From a virus (lineage: Duplodnaviria > Heunggongvirae > Uroviricota > Caudoviricetes): a stretch of DNA of 51,197 nt. Below the pieces are notes generated by a model. That model saw nothing but the letters and a program-made list of their open reading frames with translations, was not told where the DNA came from and searched no databases. The stretch's first letter is position 1, and each line of letters starts with the position of its first letter. The stretch is from the IMG/VR virus record IMGVR_UViG_3300005323_000039, positions 64,001 to 115,197 of that record. One strand, given 5' to 3'. Made by a program: the position numbers and the translations under genes. Shown piece after piece: positions 4,021-35,320 of the stretch.

Positions 4021-4296
4021 TTAATTTTTCCTGTTCTTTATCCCGATTACAGTGTATTTGCGGTCGGAGTCAGTCGAAATTGATAAAATATTTTCGTTGT
4101 TTATAAAGTATACTGACGTTATGCGTTGGTTCTGAAGCAACGCATGATCATTAAGGATCCAGTCAACTTTTCTAACGTCGCCCCAATACCCACTCGAATG
4201 ATAATTCAAGTATTCGAATGGACTCTTACCACACGTTTCTAATATTTTACATGCTCCGTTCGTTAGTATAATTTGACCCAATCTGAACAAGCACAT
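4021..4296 (-). CDS. small conserved mobile-element protein (LFxLGQI...H..G.WG family)
   Basis: LFRLGQIILTNGA...H SSGYWGDV...DW..ND.AL....RITSVY pattern common in phages and plasmids. Confidence 0.65.
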   Translation of the reverse strand: MCLFRLGQIILTNGACKILETCGKSPFEYLNYHSSGYWGDVRKVDWILNDHALLQNQRITSVYFINNENILSISTDSDRKYTVIGIKNRKN

Positions 4297-4380
4297 AAAC
4301 TCTACTATATACTTTACAAGGATATATAGTACGACTAATGTTTAGAGCGTACGTACAATAATTAAGATTAGTAAGAAGAG

Positions 4381-4530: not shown

Positions 4531-4603
4531 TGCGCTCGGAGAGATTCGAACTCTCGCCACCTGCTCGGCAAGCAGATATTCTACCAGACTATATTACGAG
4601 CGC
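4531..4603 (-). tRNA. tRNA-Gly(GCC)
   Basis: Acceptor GCGCTCG/CGAGCGC-A, anticodon arm TCTGC-TTGCCGA-GCAGG, T-arm GAGAG-TTCGAAT-CTCTC; CCA not encoded. Confidence 0.95.
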
Positions 4604-4627: not shown

Positions 4628-4700
4628 TAGTCCTGCGAGGATTCGAACCTCGGTTGCTGAGTTCAAAGCCCAGTGTGATTGACCGCTACACTACAGGACT
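4628..4700 (-). tRNA. tRNA-Gln(TTG), archaeal type
   Basis: AGTCCTG/CAGGACT-A acceptor with A1-U72; anticodon arm CTGGG-CTTTGAA-CTCAG; T-arm CGAGG-TTCGAAT-CCTCG. Confidence 0.95.
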
Positions 4701-5145: not shown

Positions 5146-5229
5146 TGCCAACAGCAGGGCTCGAACCTGCGACCCTCTACGGGACCAGATCTTGAGTCTG
5201 GCGCGTTCTTCCATCTTCGCTATGTTGGC
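5146..5229 (-). tRNA. tRNA-Leu(CAA)
   Basis: GCCAACA/TGTTGGC-A acceptor, CCAGA-CTCAAGA-TCTGG anticodon arm, long variable arm, T-arm GCAGG-TTCGAGC-CCTGC; BRE-TATA at about 5258-5275. Confidence 0.95.
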
Positions 5230-6321: not shown

Positions 6322-6401
6322 GAACCTTGCCTCACCTCGCCATACCACACCGTATCGAACCTATCCGAACCGAACCCAAACAAACCCAGTCGAACCACAT
6401 C
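6322..6401 (-). ncRNA. stand-alone GGY-NN pentamer array (array A; candidate guide RNA)
   Basis: 16 in-phase 5-nt units, 11 with GGY: gatGT ggtTC gacTG ggtTT gttTG ggtTC ggtTC ggaTA ggtTC gatAC ggtGT ggtAT ggcGA ggtGA ggcAA ggtTC; own promoter and T-tract. Confidence 0.85.
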
Positions 6402-6450: not shown

Positions 6451-6466
6451 TATTTATACTTTTCGG
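6451..6466 (-). promoter_or_regulatory. archaeal BRE-TATA promoter for array A
   Basis: CCGAAAAGTATAAATA; no sizeable minus-strand ORF between it and the array. Confidence 0.7.
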
Positions 6467-6476
6467 TGGCAACTAG

Positions 6477-7031
6477 ATGACTCTGATAAAATTGACTGCT
6501 TATAATGCATGGCGTCGTGGATTCATAACCGATGACCAATATGAAGTTTATCTTCAGCAAAATCCAGATCCAGAACAAGAAATTATAATAAATTACGATG
6601 AACATTTGCACGAAGTTTATCTTGCTGACGTACATGTGCTCAAACGAGATCCTAATGCTTATATCGACTTAGTTTTTTCACTTGACGGAGCTGGTGCAGA
6701 AATAGCTGACGCAAAGAAAGCATATGCCAGATGTAACGTTAGTGGTAGGATTATTAAAGCAACTGTTCTAGCGGATCAATCAGGTTCAATCGCAATTGAT
6801 GTCTGGAAGAAGACTACATATCCTCCAGCGGATGGCGAATCAATTACAGCAAGCGCCGTTCCAACAATCACAACCAACGTTAGTTCAGAGGATGCAACAT
6901 TGACAGGCTGGAACGTAATGGTCACAGCTGGAGATTACTTCATTGCTAACGTCGATTCTTGTACAACAATAACACATGCTGAACTCATTCTAACGATTGA
7001 ACCTGCTGTACAATATGTCCGGATCGTTTAG
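6477..7031 (+). CDS. virion protein (N-terminal RRGxIT module plus beta-sandwich)
   Basis: C-terminal domain paralogous to 7046-7864 (ADQSGSI..D.WK...YPP....SITA.AVPTI). Confidence 0.65.
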   Translation: MTLIKLTAYNAWRRGFITDDQYEVYLQQNPDPEQEIIINYDEHLHEVYLADVHVLKRDPNAYIDLVFSLDGAGAEIADAKKAYARCNVSGRIIKATVLADQSGSIAIDVWKKTTYPPADGESITASAVPTITTNVSSEDATLTGWNVMVTAGDYFIANVDSCTTITHAELILTIEPAVQYVRIV

Positions 7032-24743: not shown

Positions 24744-24776
24744 TTGGAGCAAGTAACACTACGTTATTTGCCCCAA
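24744..24776 (-). terminator. 14-bp hairpin plus T-tract ending the GAT-array transcript
   Basis: TTGGGGCAAATAAC-gtagt-GTTACTTGCTCCAA followed by TATTGTTTTTTGTTT on the minus strand. Confidence 0.65.
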
Positions 24777-24781
24777 TATAT

Positions 24782-24841
24782 ATATCAAATTTCATCGTAT
24801 CCCGACGTATCTGATCCCATCTTATCTAATCAGAACGCATG
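24782..24841 (-). ncRNA. GAT-NN pentamer array C2
   Basis: 12 units, 8 GAT: catGC gttCT gatTA gatAA gatGG gatCA gatAC gtcGG gatAC gatGA aatTT gatAT. Confidence 0.8.
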
Positions 24842-24901
24842 ACTCCACTACTCGGAGTCTAAGTTGGATATGAGGTATGAATTCAATATCCAACACACTG
24901 C

Positions 24902-24966
24902 GCATCGCATCAAATTATATCCCATCTTATCTAATCAAATCACGTTTCATCTCATCTCGTCGCATA
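24902..24966 (-). ncRNA. GAT-NN pentamer array C1
   Basis: 13 units, 9 GAT: tatGC gacGA gatGA gatGA aacGT gatTT gatTA gatAA gatGG gatAT aatTT gatGC gatGC. Confidence 0.8.
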
Positions 24967-24983
24967 AATGTCAAATATTAAAT

Positions 24984-25253
24984 TTATTCCTCGATGATTT
25001 CTCCATACCATTCTTTGGGCGCTTTTGATCGTAACTCACTATAAAAGTTTGTAAGATCGGCACGAATTTGCTTTAATACAACAGATGTCAATTGTTCGAT
25101 AATGCCTGGTATATTATGATCATCTGTTACATGTTCTTCGTATATGTTGGTCAATTCTTCTATTTTGAGACCAATTTCACGCAATTTTGATAATTCATCT
25201 CGACTTATTTCAATACTGGATGTCATTGTAACACCTGAAATATGAGCAATCAA
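24984..25253 (-). CDS. small helical accessory protein of the RAMP operon
   Basis: 89 aa, translationally coupled to 25254-25757. Confidence 0.6.
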   Translation of the reverse strand: MIAHISGVTMTSSIEISRDELSKLREIGLKIEELTNIYEEHVTDDHNIPGIIEQLTSVVLKQIRADLTNFYSELRSKAPKEWYGEIIEE

Positions 25254-25757
25254 TCATTCGAATTTTGGTTTAATTGGTACTGAACTTACACCACTTTCAT
25301 GTCTACCAGACTTAGGAGATCGTAATGAATCGTACATTGTTTTTACAGTTCCAAGCATTCCACGTCTGACAGACAACTGTGCTCTGTCGGATTCCGGCAT
25401 CAAGTGTTCGATTCTGGACGCAATATTGCACGCTCTGAATCCTCTATCAGCGGCTCTGGCTGCCCTTGACCATTTGTTGTTTACGATGATTGTGGCATTT
25501 TTGCCACCAATCAATTCTATGCCATCTCCTTTGTAGCAATGATACTCGATTTCCATTTTGTACAATACACGACGCATTAAATCTTTTCCATCAGTATCCA
25601 TAACGATTTCAGTGTCGTTTTCGATTTGCTTGTACGATAGGAATTTGCCCATAGGCTTATCTGAAAAATATGTATGGAGTTTGACGTATTCCGCTGAAGG
25701 CATACGTCCTTTGCTCGTTTTTGATTTTTTAGATTTGGTCACTTTTTCACCAACCAA
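25254..25757 (-). CDS. basic accessory protein, possible winged-helix DNA binder
   Basis: Overlaps the RAMP gene stop; GKFLSYKQIENDT...LMRRVL..MEIEY.C..G.GIEL pattern. Confidence 0.55.
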   Translation of the reverse strand: MVGEKVTKSKKSKTSKGRMPSAEYVKLHTYFSDKPMGKFLSYKQIENDTEIVMDTDGKDLMRRVLYKMEIEYHCYKGDGIELIGGKNATIIVNNKWSRAARAADRGFRACNIASRIEHLMPESDRAQLSVRRGMLGTVKTMYDSLRSPKSGRHESGVSSVPIKPKFE

Positions 25758-26302
25758 TTAACGTTTTTGACAGAGAATCTTCCGAACCATCCACGTCTTT
25801 CTGGTCGAAACATTCCAATTCCAATAAACATACCACTAGTTTTGAGATGTTCGATGAAAACATCGCGTGTTATGACTTCATCGAATATGTTGTAGCGAAC
25901 TGTACCTTGCCATTTATCCACAACAGGAAAACATCTATATACTCGGGTGCTTCCACCGACCTTACCATCTGCAGGTACATAAAGCCAATTTGGACGCAAT
26001 CCATCCTTTTTCATGGGAAGTACCAGAGGATCTACGACCATTATTGCTGCATCGAACTTCTTCTTGAATGTTTTGTTTCGCTCACCGGGAACCTTCTTGC
26101 TCATGTATCCTGCAGCACCTTTGATCGAATTAGAAAACATTTCGGGTGGTATTATTACATTACCGTCGGAATCGTAGTGTGCACGATCTTGCCAATGAGT
26201 TTGTTCCCACTCTTCGAATGGCTTTGTTGCGTTCCCTGCATATTTTCCAAACTGCAAAGGTGTTGTACCTTCCAACAAACATTCAGCTATTATTTCTATC
26301 AT
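25739..26302 (-). CDS. Cas7/RAMP-like protein 2 (Vipr-like), linked to GAT-NN arrays
   Basis: N-terminal LEGTTPL strand, VIIPPEMFSNSIKGAA helix, C-terminal Gly loop GMFIGIGMFRPERRGWFGRFSV; alignable to 32831-33397. Confidence 0.75.
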   Translation of the reverse strand: MIEIIAECLLEGTTPLQFGKYAGNATKPFEEWEQTHWQDRAHYDSDGNVIIPPEMFSNSIKGAAGYMSKKVPGERNKTFKKKFDAAIMVVDPLVLPMKKDGLRPNWLYVPADGKVGGSTRVYRCFPVVDKWQGTVRYNIFDEVITRDVFIEHLKTSGMFIGIGMFRPERRGWFGRFSVKNVNWLVKK

Positions 26303-26313
26303 GTAAATACCTC

Positions 26314-26388
26314 ATGTCTTGACTCAAATGGTCGTATCGCATCCAATCAAATCCAATTCTATCATATCGCATTTTATATGATCGCATC
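26314..26388 (-). ncRNA. GAT-NN pentamer array D in the leader of RAMP gene 2
   Basis: 12 core units (8 GAT) gatGC gatCA tatAA aatGC gatAT gatAG aatTG gatTT gatTG gatGC gatAC gacCA plus 3 degenerate units ending at the GAGGT ribosome-binding site. Confidence 0.8.
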
Positions 26389-26444
26389 TTAATTGTATTT
26401 TGCACTACGTTTTGATTGTAGGCATTACGCTTTAACGTTATATT

Positions 26445-26463
26445 AATATATATAGGTTTTGGT
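26445..26463 (-). promoter_or_regulatory. BRE-TATA promoter of the array D/RAMP2 operon
   Basis: ACCAAAACCTATATATTAA on the minus strand. Confidence 0.65.
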
Positions 26464-31620: not shown

Positions 31621-31637
31621 AAAGTGGAAAAATGGAG

Positions 31638-32015
31638 TTAGTGAGCAACTTGAGCCGCAGCTGCTAATATTTTGTTGATAACAACGTATTCGGGAGCGAG
31701 TATGGCAAGCATTGGGTCGTGTAAAGTTGACCATACAATTGATGCTATAATGGCATATGCAAAAAACGATCCAATGATACCAATGAATATTGCAATTATT
31801 GCAAAATCTCCATCATTTTCGCCTTCTTTCCACAGCCATTGCCACAAATATTTAACGGCAATTAACGTTATGACTAAAGACAAAGCGTTACAAGCAAGAC
31901 TAGCTGCTCCGTCCATTGCTGTGCCTCGAACGGCCACCTCATACGAATAGAGGGAGGCGTTCTGAGCTCCATTCAACAATCCGTTGAGTAATTCTAACTC
32001 CTGAGGATTCAACAT
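31638..32015 (-). CDS. membrane protein
   Basis: Two hydrophobic helices, LLAPEY-like end. Confidence 0.6.
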   Translation of the reverse strand: MLNPQELELLNGLLNGAQNASLYSYEVAVRGTAMDGAASLACNALSLVITLIAVKYLWQWLWKEGENDGDFAIIAIFIGIIGSFFAYAIIASIVWSTLHDPMLAILAPEYVVINKILAAAAQVAH

Positions 32016-32043
32016 ACAATCTACTCCATACTTTGTTTAACAT

Positions 32044-32724
32044 CTAACGATGGCAGTCAACCACGACTAATATGTCATCTGGTCTGCACGTCATGACTAA
32101 CTGGTAAAATTCTGACTGCCATTGTTCTTCTGGCTTGTACTCACCATGATGCCAGTTCTCGTGCCATACTCCACCCTTCAATACAGCGTATGTTGGATGC
32201 ACTTTGGCAGTTCTTTGTGCATACGATTCGCATGTGTCACCTTCCTGAATTCCAGACATGTCGCGAATTGATTGTACGGCTTCGTCAGAGTCGCCATGTC
32301 GTTCGATCATTTCACACCACATATCGTACGATTTGAGACAATCTTCATAGGATCTCTGGAGCATGGAATCCCAATCGATTAGGTCGAATGGAGCAAATGA
32401 ACTCTCTACAACAACCTTTGAAGGTAACTGGTCAATAGCTACTTCATCTGAGCCATTAGACGTCAATTGGAGGTTGCGTAACACTACAACCTTCGTTATA
32501 AAGTATCCACGATATCTGCCGCCTACTTCATACTCTGCCCACTTTCCGTTCGGATTATCGTAATAGATTTCACCATCATCATCCACAATTTTGCAACTTC
32601 TGGAGTCAAGTTTTGCTTCCTCGTTGTCCATGTTTGCTCCAAGTATCTCGAAAGGATGCATAACGTCTTCCAGAGTTTGTGTGCTGCTAGCTGGAATTAT
32701 TACAAGCACTGACGTATGAGTCAT
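32044..32724 (-). CDS. conserved phage protein of unknown function
   Basis: MTH.SVLVI, NPNGKW..Y.VGGR, YAVL..G.W.E, VVVDCH motifs. Confidence 0.75.
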   Translation of the reverse strand: MTHTSVLVIIPASSTQTLEDVMHPFEILGANMDNEEAKLDSRSCKIVDDDGEIYYDNPNGKWAEYEVGGRYRGYFITKVVVLRNLQLTSNGSDEVAIDQLPSKVVVESSFAPFDLIDWDSMLQRSYEDCLKSYDMWCEMIERHGDSDEAVQSIRDMSGIQEGDTCESYAQRTAKVHPTYAVLKGGVWHENWHHGEYKPEEQWQSEFYQLVMTCRPDDILVVVDCHR

Positions 32725-32830
32725 CTGAACACCTACTGCCTCTAATACGTATTAATGCTATTTATAGTTTGTTAAAGTCATAAACAGTTTGACCAAAAGT
32801 TATAAATAATAGAACTACGTTTCAAGTACG

Positions 32831-33397
32831 GTGATTTTGTTGAACACCCTTTCGAAACGTTTTAATGTAGGAATTCGCGGCACGCGCCCTCTTGTCATGC
32901 ATTCAACTCGCGTTATGATGCAAGAGAAATCTGGTCGCGGCGACAGAATGACTGCAGAACAAGAAGTTGAATTATCCTTGTATAAGGATTCATCTGGTAG
33001 TATAGTTGTTCCATCTGAATGCATATTGGCGTGTATGAAAGCTGCAGCAAGTGACTACAAAGTTCCTGGCAAAGGCAAAAAGACATTCAAACAATACACT
33101 GATTCAGGACTCGATATCGAACCAACGATGCCAATTCTTCAATCAGACGGATACGTAACGGATTTGCGTCCTGTTGTCGTACAGAAATCCAGAATTATAA
33201 GAGCTCGCCCCAAATTCGAAAATTGGTCTGTGGAATTTACAATCGTTGTAAATGATTCACTTTGGTTAGACAGCAGTGGTGGTGGCAGAGTTATACGCGA
33301 AATACTGGAATCTGCCGGAAAGTACAAAGGCTTGTTAGAAATGAGACCAAGATTTGGTCGTTTTGAAGTCACAAAATTCGAAGAATCTCCCGACTAA
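32831..33397 (+). CDS. Cas7/RAMP-like protein 1 (Vipr-like), linked to GGY-NN arrays
   Basis: IRGTRPLVMH, LYKDSSG.IVVPSECILACMKAAA, VPGKGKKTFK, RIIRARPKF.NW, AGKYKGLLEMRPRFGRFEV Gly loop; BRE-TATA at about 32792-32808. Confidence 0.8.
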   Translation: MILLNTLSKRFNVGIRGTRPLVMHSTRVMMQEKSGRGDRMTAEQEVELSLYKDSSGSIVVPSECILACMKAAASDYKVPGKGKKTFKQYTDSGLDIEPTMPILQSDGYVTDLRPVVVQKSRIIRARPKFENWSVEFTIVVNDSLWLDSSGGGRVIREILESAGKYKGLLEMRPRFGRFEVTKFEESPD

Positions 33398-33415
33398 AGG
33401 AGATCTAATCATTCT

Positions 33416-33440
33416 GGTTCGGTTTGGTAAGGTATGGCTT
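33416..33440 (+). repeat. short GGY-NN array B0 (5 units)
   Basis: ggtTC ggtTT ggtAA ggtAT ggcTT, 18 nt after the RAMP stop; contains the ATG of the next ORF. Confidence 0.8.
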
Positions 33441-33748
33441 CATTAGTCAGATGTTGTGAACCGACATCTCTAGAATTGATTGTTCGCGAGGCATTGAAGT
33501 CTCGCAACATTCAATTTTTGGAGCAAGTTCCCACGAGGTCTGGATTTGTGTTAGATTTTCTTGTTGGAGAACATCTAGTGATTGAAGTTGACGGTCCTTG
33601 CCATGACAGTAGCAAGAGTCGAAAAAGGGATCGTTTTAGAGATAGAATTTTGCGAAACGAAGGATATAAAGTATACAGAATGAATTATTCCACCATAAAC
33701 AATACTCAAAACTTTAATTCAACGTTAGATTTTATCCTCTCTGCATAA
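33434..33748 (+). CDS. DUF559/Vsr-like (EDxHD-type) endonuclease
   Basis: LE.IV..AL....I.F.EQ...GF.LDFL....LVIEVDGPCH...RD..RD..L...GY.V.R. Confidence 0.85.
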   Translation: MASLVRCCEPTSLELIVREALKSRNIQFLEQVPTRSGFVLDFLVGEHLVIEVDGPCHDSSKSRKRDRFRDRILRNEGYKVYRMNYSTINNTQNFNSTLDFILSA

Positions 33749-33759
33749 GAGAGATATCC

Positions 33760-33846
33760 GGTACGTTGCGGCGTGGTAGGTTGGGGTTTGGTATGGTGAG
33801 GTTCGGTGTGTTTCGGTTCGGTGTGGTAGGGTTTTAATATAACCTT
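33760..33846 (+). ncRNA. GGY-NN pentamer array B with terminal hairpin (candidate guide RNA)
   Basis: 15 units, 12 GGY: ggtAC gttGC ggcGT ggtAG gttGG ggtTT ggtAT ggtGA ggtTC ggtGT gttTC ggtTC ggtGT ggtAG ggtTT; hairpin AGGGTT/AACCTT then T-tract. Confidence 0.88.
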
Positions 33847-33901
33847 CGTTTTCCTTTTTTCTCATATTTATTTCATTCAAATTCATTTAGGAGGATTATT
33901 T

Positions 33902-35320
33902 TTGGACATAAGATCCATCGAAACGATAAAAAATGAATTAAAAAGTTATCAAATGAGTCATCATATACGGCTGAGAGATTACAACCCTCTGAGTGTTTTG
34001 TCAGTTCTCAATGAAACGCTGGCAATACAGATTCAACTACTCGAAGAGTCCATCGATTCTGAAGTTCAATCGATAAATCCGTTGACGGCGACCGGCGAGA
34101 ATCTTGACGCCGTGATAATTGACAGACTACCCGCAGGCAGACAAGCAGGCACTCAAGCGGTCGGAACAATTACCTTCCGACGGAATTTGCCCGCAGCCGC
34201 TGTCGTGACTATTCCTACAGGTACGCAGGCCATCGCACTAGCAGACAACGGAGATTATTTGTGGTTCGAAACAACTGCTGTAGGCTCTATAGGAATAGGC
34301 GATAGTAGTGTTGTAGTGGCTGCACGCTCAATGCGTACAGGATTGAATGGCAACATTCCCGCATATTCTATCACTAGATTACCAGTGAGTATTGATGGCG
34401 TGGATTTTGTGGAAAATATTGCCAGCTATACAGGAGGCACAGATGAAGAATCCGATGATGATTTACGTGCAAGATATATATACGCTGTGCTTGTGCCTGG
34501 CCGAGCCACCCAACAACTGATCGAACAACATCTAACGGATTTGGAAACTGTACTTGAAGCCCACACATATACGCGAGCTCCAGGGGACGTTGAAATTGTT
34601 GTAGACACGACTACAGGCATTGGTTCAACTGATACGGATGTTGCTGCATGTATTGAAGAAAATATTGCGGCGGGAGTAGTTGCACGTGGTGTATTGGGCG
34701 CAAGTATATCTGGCGGAATTAATGTAGAATTGTCCGTATGTGCCGGAGGATTTTTATACGTTAGGCCAACCGTTCATATTCTAGCCGAAGAATCAATGAC
34801 AATAACTTATACAGATCACCTAGCACGGTCGCGTACAGGAACGTGTACTATTCCAGCGGGAACGATTGCAGGAAGTGCTGTAATCGCTACACTACAAGAC
34901 CCGAATGATAGAGTTGTCGAAATAAATGGAATATCCTACGTCGGGACTTCAACATACGATTTGCTCATGGGCATGGGAACATATCCTTGCTTGTACGTCA
35001 CTCCACGCATGGTATCAACAAATGTTACTGTTGCAATTGTTGATACTGCAACGCCAGAAGTTGGTCTTGCTGCTAACATAGAATCCTCTCTAACAGATTT
35101 TCTAGATGCTTATACCATTGGCGAAGATTTAGAGTATAGTGACCTCGTAAAATATATTTTTGTCGATTATGCTACAGGCAGAGCATTTGATGGCATTGAT
35201 CAGATAACTTCATGCGTCGTGACAGGCAACAGCACAACGATAAGTTCGTTCGGCCAGATTATCAATTTGGACGAAGATCAGCGCATCGAGCCTGGCAGCA
35301 TCACGATAACAATAACATAG
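33902..35320 (+). CDS. baseplate J/gp47-like protein
   Basis: ATGENLD, AGTQAVG.ITF, TG..GNIPA, GG.DEESDDDLRARY motifs. Confidence 0.92.
   Translation: MDIRSIETIKNELKSYQMSHHIRLRDYNPLSVLSVLNETLAIQIQLLEESIDSEVQSINPLTATGENLDAVIIDRLPAGRQAGTQAVGTITFRRNLPAAAVVTIPTGTQAIALADNGDYLWFETTAVGSIGIGDSSVVVAARSMRTGLNGNIPAYSITRLPVSIDGVDFVENIASYTGGTDEESDDDLRARYIYAVLVPGRATQQLIEQHLTDLETVLEAHTYTRAPGDVEIVVDTTTGIGSTDTDVAACIEENIAAGVVARGVLGASISGGINVELSVCAGGFLYVRPTVHILAEESMTITYTDHLARSRTGTCTIPAGTIAGSAVIATLQDPNDRVVEINGISYVGTSTYDLLMGMGTYPCLYVTPRMVSTNVTVAIVDTATPEVGLAANIESSLTDFLDAYTIGEDLEYSDLVKYIFVDYATGRAFDGIDQITSCVVTGNSTTISSFGQIINLDEDQRIEPGSITITIT

Follow-up and report, generated by a model that had tools for sequence, protein, structure and literature searches.

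A virus-borne VIPR locus with a DUF559 nuclease gene and guide arrays resembling sequences in adjoining virion genes

Layout of the locus

The stretch of DNA analysed here, referred to throughout as the window, comprises 51,197 nucleotides (bases 64001-115197) of a 115,197-bp virus genome from IMG/VR (IMGVR_UViG_3300005323_000039, Caudoviricetes), which has direct terminal repeats and a G+C content of 42%. Among its baseplate genes lies a cassette containing vipr, the gene of a small RAMP protein, a gene for a DUF559 nuclease domain and arrays of GGYNN pentamers. The locus is a member of the VIPR (Viral Interference Programmable Repeat) systems described in four bioRxiv preprints of 2026, and not a new kind of system. 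These systems consist of a ~20-kDa RAMP protein named Vipr, an accessory vap gene and vrRNAs, the latter being built from 9-16 GGY/NN pentamers followed by a 3' tail (10.64898/2026.04.26.720920). A preliminary description made from the letters alone had read positions 32831-33846 as a compact effector-plus-guide operon, and on re-reading all the elements that it listed are present at the coordinates given there, the 5-unit and 15-unit arrays included. Its RAMP gene is borne out by a Csm3/Cas7-type fold and by homology to published Vipr proteins, its nuclease reading frame by a match to PF04480 and by acidic residues that are invariant in orthologues, and the operon as a whole is supported, its architecture matching that of the VIPR systems published in 2026 (10.64898/2026.04.26.720920). 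Our main claim is one of rediscovery, in that the system was recognised from raw sequence and has been published only in 2026. The features are as follows, with guide names that denote predicted RNAs.

32801..32808, plus strand: TATAAATA promoter box, preceded by AAAAGT and lying 22 nucleotides 5' of the vipr GTG
32831..33397, plus strand: vipr, encoding a 188-amino-acid minimal RAMP (Cas7/Csm3-like) protein from a GTG start (PHROG, fold and homology)
33382..33406, plus strand: hairpin ATCTCC/GGAGAT with the vipr stop codon inside its loop (fold -8 kcal/mol)
33416..33440, plus strand: short array of five GGYNN units, GGTTC GGTTT GGTAA GGTAT GGCTT (sequence and array scan)
33434..33748, plus strand: vap candidate, a 104-amino-acid DUF559/Vsr-like PD-(D/E)xK nuclease domain (Pfam and orthologues)
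33760..33834, plus strand: vrRNA B, 15 GGYNN units (sequence and array scan)
33828..33860, plus strand: 3' end of vrRNA B, with the hairpin AGGGTT (33828-33833)/AACCTT (33841-33846), a TAACC motif and a T-tract at 33849-33860
6322..6396, minus strand: vrRNA A (orphan), 15 GGYNN units, with its own TATAAATA box at 6451-6458 (minus strand), a TAACCT mini-hairpin and a T-tract
34049..34093, plus strand: near-cognate site of vrRNA B in baseplate J, amino acids 50-64 (SIDSEVQSINPLTAT), the skipped base being codon position 3
6570..6614, plus strand: near-cognate site of vrRNA A in gene 6477-7031, amino acids 32-46, the skipped base being codon position 3
31621..33901: 2.28-kb insertion relative to the loci L014 and L035, holding two minus-strand open reading frames (ORFs) and the VIPR cassette (tblastn synteny and gene tables)

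The operon would begin at the TATAAATA box (32801), take in vipr, the 5-unit array, the DUF559 gene as vap and the 15-unit vrRNA B, and end at the T-tract, with vrRNA A as an orphan guide gene some 27 kb away under a promoter of its own. In the window the TATAAATA motif is found at 13 places where 3.1 would be expected, a four-fold excess, and it usually follows AAAG or AAAC. Five of these cases (10180, 32801, 37684, 43191 and 43226) stand 22-24 nucleotides before the start codon of a long ORF that has no Shine-Dalgarno sequence, and in the related locus L012 TTATATAT lies 21 nucleotides before the vipr ATG. Such fixed spacing in the absence of Shine-Dalgarno sequences points to archaeal B recognition element (BRE)/TATA promoters with leaderless mRNAs, and the pattern across the window suggests an archaeal host; the same motif spacing makes a single promoter and a leaderless start plausible for the vipr operon. 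A T4-type late promoter was also considered for TATAAATA and was dropped, as the spacing to start codons without Shine-Dalgarno sequences fits an archaeal TATA box better.

The Vipr protein and its relatives

The 188-amino-acid protein has no match in Pfam and corresponds over its full length to phrog_4652 (PHROGs, E 1e-21). Thirty metagenomic homologues were found, and from an alignment of 26 sequences, the query included, an AlphaFold (AF2) model was obtained with a predicted local distance difference test (pLDDT) score of 91.8. Searched with Foldseek, this model matches type III-A Csm3 and type VII Cas7 in the PDB (E ~4e-7, template-modelling (TM) scores 0.5-0.6). Among AlphaFold DB clusters X1U2U4 stands first (E 8e-21, TM 0.87/0.92, root-mean-square deviation 1.9 A, 30% identity), a protein that has been named as the reference Vipr (10.64898/2026.10.21.760802), and the next matches are Cmr6/Csm3-type RAMPs. 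A tblastn search with the protein returns 129 phage records, mostly of Felixounavirus, at E 3e-9; aligned pairwise, the homologue of Felixounavirus phage VpaE1 is 28% identical to it (E 1e-16) and has GGYNN arrays on both sides, which is the layout published for SUSP1.

The residues that contact G1, G2 and Y3 in SUSP1 are H17, R138, D177, W178 and R179 (10.64898/2026.04.26.720927), and the set used here for comparison also takes in SUSP1 E71. Aligned by way of VpaE1, H24, E63, R126 and R172 of the window protein fall on the published His, Glu, Arg and Arg positions that contact GGY. As judged from the model and these alignments, the assignment of the 188-amino-acid protein to the Vipr family, with a Csm3/Cas7-type RAMP fold, holds.

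The relation to class 1 CRISPR-Cas (type III) is, on the modelled structure, one of fold only. The RRM core, the G-loop and the thumb are shared with Cas7 and Csm3 of types III-A and VII, whereas the locus has no repeat-spacer array, no Cas10, Cas5 or Cas6 and no adaptation genes, and its period is 5 nucleotides with 2 informative bases in place of 6 nucleotides with 5. No CRISPR-like array was found in the tandem-repeat scan, and the only RAMP-type genes seen are two vipr genes, the second of which is described at the end of this text.

The GGYNN arrays and their candidate targets

A search for (GGTNN)x3+GGT with at most one mismatch gives 15 matches against 0.09 expected. When the whole genome is scanned for arrays only three are found, two of them at the cassette and the third at 6396-6322 on the minus strand, while shuffled genomes give 0-1. 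Among the 35 units of the window, position 1 is G in all, position 2 is G in 29 and position 3 is a pyrimidine in 34, and positions 4 and 5 have entropies of 1.5 and 1.9 bits, with 12 of the 16 possible dinucleotides in use. The contrast between a fixed GGY and a free NN extends to 253 units of related loci, so that what had been noticed within one locus is also true between relatives. The long array at 33760-33834 is crossed by no plus-strand ORF of at least 30 amino acids, and the period of five cannot reflect coding constraint. Both 15-unit arrays match the published size of vrRNAs, 9-16 units with conserved GGY and hypervariable NN, and arrays accompany Vipr homologues in every locus examined, those of cultured Felixounavirus and Gordonia phages included. 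Rfam, at its gathering thresholds, recognises three tRNAs only and leaves the arrays unmatched, and cultured phage genomes, searched by blastn, contain no match to the region.

The 5-unit array appears to be a truncated or minimal vrRNA, relatives having two to five full arrays in its place; with 10 informative positions it offers too few for a target search. It overlaps the DUF559 ATG at 33434, an arrangement that is not universal, since in L036 the DUF559 gene (4057-4344) shares 59 nucleotides with the 3' end of vipr and all arrays lie downstream. vrRNA A resembles the solo vrRNAs, which occur in vipr-null phages or satellites and use the Vipr of another element (10.64898/2026.10.15.759431), in standing alone, far from vipr and with its own promoter, and differs from them in sharing a genome with its presumed Vipr.

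The ends of vrRNA A and vrRNA B have in common a short hairpin, a TAACC motif and a T-tract, with folds that are not above those of shuffled sequences, and a similar end precedes the T-tract of vrRNA A (TAACCT) and of the last array of L012 (CTAACCC). The terminal hairpin and T-tract of the preliminary description are thus both present, but the hairpin of vrRNA B is weak, at only -5.7 kcal/mol and no better than shuffles (z -0.34). Relatives have a hairpin equivalent to that at the vipr stop codon, both there and between arrays, which is stronger than the array-end hairpins and whose pairs differ through compensating changes (AATCTCC/GGAGATT in L011, CGCTCC/GGAGCG in L012).

In the published systems double-stranded DNA is read by the NN pairs, which skip one base per unit, usually at the codon wobble position, and the natural targets are competing phages and satellites (10.64898/2026.04.26.720920). 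Targets were accordingly sought by the published rule of a one-base skip per unit (NNxNNx). No full-length self target exists in the whole genome, the best match of 20/30 being equal to that of guides with permuted NN order, and this agrees with the absence of self targets in the preprint, where none reached an NN match of at least 80% and where disturbed NN pairing abolishes silencing (10.64898/2026.04.26.720920). Partial matches are found in the adjoining genes: units 2-11 of guide B match 16/20 at 34061-34090 in J (17/30 overall), the unique best 10-unit match in the genome, and units 1-11 of guide A match 17/22 at 6582-6614 in gene 6477-7031, the unique best 11-unit match. What lends these self matches weight is where they lie, the phase they are in and the alleles of relatives. 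The product of 6477-7031 (P0060) is also listed on a 173-kb contig, which exceeds the 115-kb genome in length and may be either a concatemeric assembly or some larger relative.

On the L042 allele, at the homologous site, guide A matches 20/22, against 17/22 for self and 13/22 for the next best match in that contig; the chance of such a match in the 1.4-kb contig is ~3e-7. Guide B matches the L035 allele of J at the homologous site with 17/20 and 21/30, against 16/20 and 17/30 for self. The same picture is obtained from the peptides that the guides imply. For guide A this is [DE][FL]SS[IM]TV[DE]Y[DE][DE][HQ][KN][HQ][DE], compared with PEQEIIINYDEHLHE in self and with DGRIITIDYDEHKYE and EDQIVTVDYDAHKYK in the two closest homologues, and it departs from self at T, V, D and K, which are the residues of the relatives; for guide B it combines SIN of self with EETE of the relative. 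In three related cassettes the outer guides match adjacent portal, 436-amino-acid and 214-amino-acid genes at 16-17/20 (permutation p 0-0.03), and all five flanking-gene matches, the window's two and those of the three related cassettes, are in wobble phase. One guide among the related cassettes is in the mRNA sense, which fits the targeting of DNA rather than of RNA. These comparisons indicate that both long guides are directed at adjoining genes, baseplate J and the 184-amino-acid virion gene (6477-7031), and show that they fit the alleles of relatives better than the virus's own. A relaxed guide A core has 5 matches in the metagenome collection, none of them in a homologue of the 184-amino-acid gene and as many as chance would give with 20 fixed bases, and among IMG/VR relatives of J (at most 45% identical) none is above background except L035, which was found by protein look-up.

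Were the arrays not guides at all, but a decaying G-rich microsatellite, a protein sponge or a structural RNA beside an unrelated RAMP-like gene, folds no better than those of shuffles and databases that hold no full-length target would be expected, and both are observed. Such an origin is nevertheless very improbable given that GGY is fixed and NN free in 35 local and 253 related units, that the arrays co-occur with Vipr homologues at every locus examined and that an in-phase match of 20/22 to a homologous gene has so small a chance of arising by accident. TRAP-like or CsrA-like RNA sponges, G-quadruplex DNA, telomere-like repeats and Chi-like sites were dropped in view of the fold and the literature.

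The partial matches in flanking genes invite another explanation, in which they are the real targets and the complex times or damps expression of the virus's own J and 184-amino-acid genes. It draws on the observation that the best partial matches genome-wide lie in adjacent genes and in wobble phase, and on the promoter of the cassette, apparently of a type common to several window genes. Self-regulation of this kind is improbable, however, as the self match of guide B reaches only 17/30 overall in a system where disturbed pairing abolishes silencing, as the preprint found no self target of at least 80%, and as the alleles of relatives fit better exactly where self differs, which is the opposite of what self-regulation would predict.

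The type II VIPR of Escherichia phage SUSP1 and Felixounavirus is the nearest published counterpart. It shares with the locus a single-RRM RAMP of ~20 kDa (28% identity) with aligned contact His, Arg and G-loop positions, GGY/NN arrays that flank a two-gene core, the skip at the wobble position, the want of a strong self target and a viral carrier. The two differ in that the accessory gene of type II is the DNA-binding vap1 whereas here it is a DUF559/Vsr-type nuclease, in a helical-bundle insert that is ~15 residues shorter here, in the tail, a pseudoknot in SUSP1 and a simple hairpin or TAACC plus T-tract here, and in promoters that here look archaeal. The targets differ as well, being a satellite or prophage regulators in type II and here apparently structural genes of relatives that lie beside the guide.

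The DUF559 nuclease and a proposed mode of action

The 104-amino-acid protein matches PF04480 (E 6e-10) and PF18741 (E 5e-9) in Pfam, the DUF559/MTES_1575 Vsr-like nuclease domain, and D41, E51, D53, D66 and R69 are invariant in six DUF559 orthologues. A weak match (E 0.05) connects it with the Vsr-like homing endonuclease I-Bth0305I (3r3p). Across loci the nuclease is 95-109 amino acids long and is without a DNA-binding domain. Its gene lies immediately downstream of a vipr homologue in 6/6 distinct viral contexts, at 40-58% protein identity: in the window, where the neighbours are baseplate genes; in L011, beside an RNA ligase and a 1490-amino-acid protein; in L012/L013, beside a portal gene; in L036/L037, beside RNase H and PKD-peptidase genes; and in L038/L039 and L040/L041, beside unannotated ORFs. 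In the contexts fetched, GGYNN arrays stand between and after the vipr and DUF559 genes, and the present DUF559-bearing clade is viral. The nuclease-bearing VIPR types III and V also pair Vipr with a predicted DNA nuclease, which suggests destruction of the target over repression, but they are described as enriched in host defence islands, with an HNH example, whereas here a DUF559 nuclease lies among the virion genes of a virus. A predicted complex of Vipr with the DUF559 protein scored 0.00, which is no answer and counts neither for nor against binding.

We favour a reading in which the locus is a virus-borne VIPR aimed at co-infecting relatives, with the self allele immune and the nuclease cutting bound rival DNA, and assign to it a probability of roughly 0.8. 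Cryo-electron microscopy of the published system reveals one Vipr protomer per unit (10.64898/2026.04.26.720927), and by analogy Vipr would polymerise along the GGYNN array, one protomer per unit, burying GGY and presenting NN; the NN pairs would then read double-stranded DNA as NNxNNx, the skip falling on the codon wobble position. The system would attack co-infecting relatives while the linked self allele stays immune, the guide would be kept linked to the immune allele so that recombinants avoid self-targeting, and the conserved nuclease would cut the bound rival DNA rather than leave it merely silenced. Cutting by the DUF559 domain of DNA held in a Vipr filament, which we infer, is the weakest step of this explanation.

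Several points weigh against it. The partnership of DUF559 with Vipr, as opposed to an independent selfish nuclease, is something we infer only, and expression of the vrRNAs in this virus and their complex with Vipr are predictions. According to a preprint, nuclease-bearing VIPR types are found mainly in host defence islands and not in viruses. E170 and M171 of the window protein stand at the published D177 and W178, the family consensus being D-F-R, although these substitutions appear conservative. Taken alone, the self matches are without genome-wide significance (permutation p 0.4-0.7), exact scans of IMG/VR for the decoded cores (guide B units 2-14 and 2-11, guide A units 1-11) gave no match, and no database sequence reaches the preprint's NN match of at least 80% over a whole guide.

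Alternatively, VIPR here might only silence transcription, the DUF559 protein being an unrelated, free-standing homing endonuclease carried along in the cassette, with a target that the protein itself determines. The activity published for VIPR, in type II of SUSP1, is repression of transcription (10.64898/2026.04.26.720920), DUF559/Vsr-like domains do occur as homing endonucleases (3r3p), and the cassette is polymorphic in presence, as is detailed below. We regard this alternative as unlikely, because a nuclease of 95-109 amino acids has no DNA-binding domain to provide specificity, and because its position beside vipr in six contexts at 40-58% identity, sometimes overlapping vipr or lying between arrays, is unlike that of a chance hitch-hiker.

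The polymorphism is evident from synteny. The gp25-like gene directly adjoins J in L014 and L035, with no cassette, whereas in the window 2.28 kb separates them (tblastn synteny); the J proteins of these loci are 42-44% identical to that of the window and the gp25-like proteins 42-46%. The comparison that had been proposed as a check for a variable insertion thus reveals that at one fixed site, flanked by conserved genes, the cassette is present or absent depending on the genome. The placement of the cassette between the gp25-like gene and J is likewise upheld, but it is not alone there, as the insert also holds two minus-strand ORFs, 31638-32015 (a 125-amino-acid membrane protein, phrog_1486) and 32044-32724 (226 amino acids, phrog_10079), both of which are missing from that interval in L014 and L035.

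This arrangement recalls free-standing homing endonucleases, such as T4 Seg/Mob and the EDxHD/Vsr-like I-Bth0305I (3r3p). They too are mobile cassettes between conserved genes and absent from relatives, a Vsr-like nuclease is common to both, and the adjacent gene holds a recognition site that agrees more closely with the allele lacking the cassette than with the carrier's own. The difference is that recognition of the site would here come from an RNA-protein filament and not from a DNA-binding domain of the nuclease. Tentatively, VIPR with DUF559 might act in this clade as an RNA-guided counterpart to homing endonucleases of the free-standing kind, or as a poison-antidote drive. Each outer guide would be kept beside an immune allele of its target gene, rivals with the sensitive allele would be cut during co-infection, and repair from the carrier would pass on the immune allele along with the guide or cassette; we consider this possible, though doubtful.

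To the published systems the locus adds a virus-borne VIPR with a conserved, bare Vsr/DUF559 nuclease domain as partner, one genome, probably that of an archaeal virus, with two different VIPR systems, of GGY/NN and of GAY/NN type, and guides that lie beside near-cognate, in-phase copies of their targets. The placing of guide beside target may explain how suicide is avoided after recombination between co-infecting relatives, and may reveal if VIPR cassettes are able to spread in the manner of homing elements.

Some further repeats and loci were noted alongside these. At 1446-1483 an intergenic CTTAC/TTTAC tandem repeat (Tandem Repeats Finder (TRF) periods 5, 9 and 14) precedes a stretch rich in A and G; it does not belong to the GGY arrays, and no gene suggests itself as its partner. 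Three tRNA genes (4531-4603, 4628-4700 and 5146-5229, minus strand) lie just beside the region of the orphan vrRNA A. A second VIPR-like system is present at 24744-26463 on the minus strand, with a 187-amino-acid Vipr paralogue (25739-26302) that is 29% identical to the first (E 3e-11) and is followed by two accessory ORFs, 25254-25757 and 24984-25253. Its arrays have a period of 5 and fixed GAT/GAC triplets instead of GGY, and resemble the GAC/NN class, one of the non-canonical repeats that have been reported (10.64898/2026.10.21.760802). Beyond this genome, Gordonia phage MakoManhole (PQ184807.1) has at 1694-2968 a Vipr homologue, gp78, of 33% identity with flanking GGC/GGT-NN arrays, followed by gp77, annotated as 'DNA binding protein'; the locus is an unannotated VIPR in a cultured actinophage.

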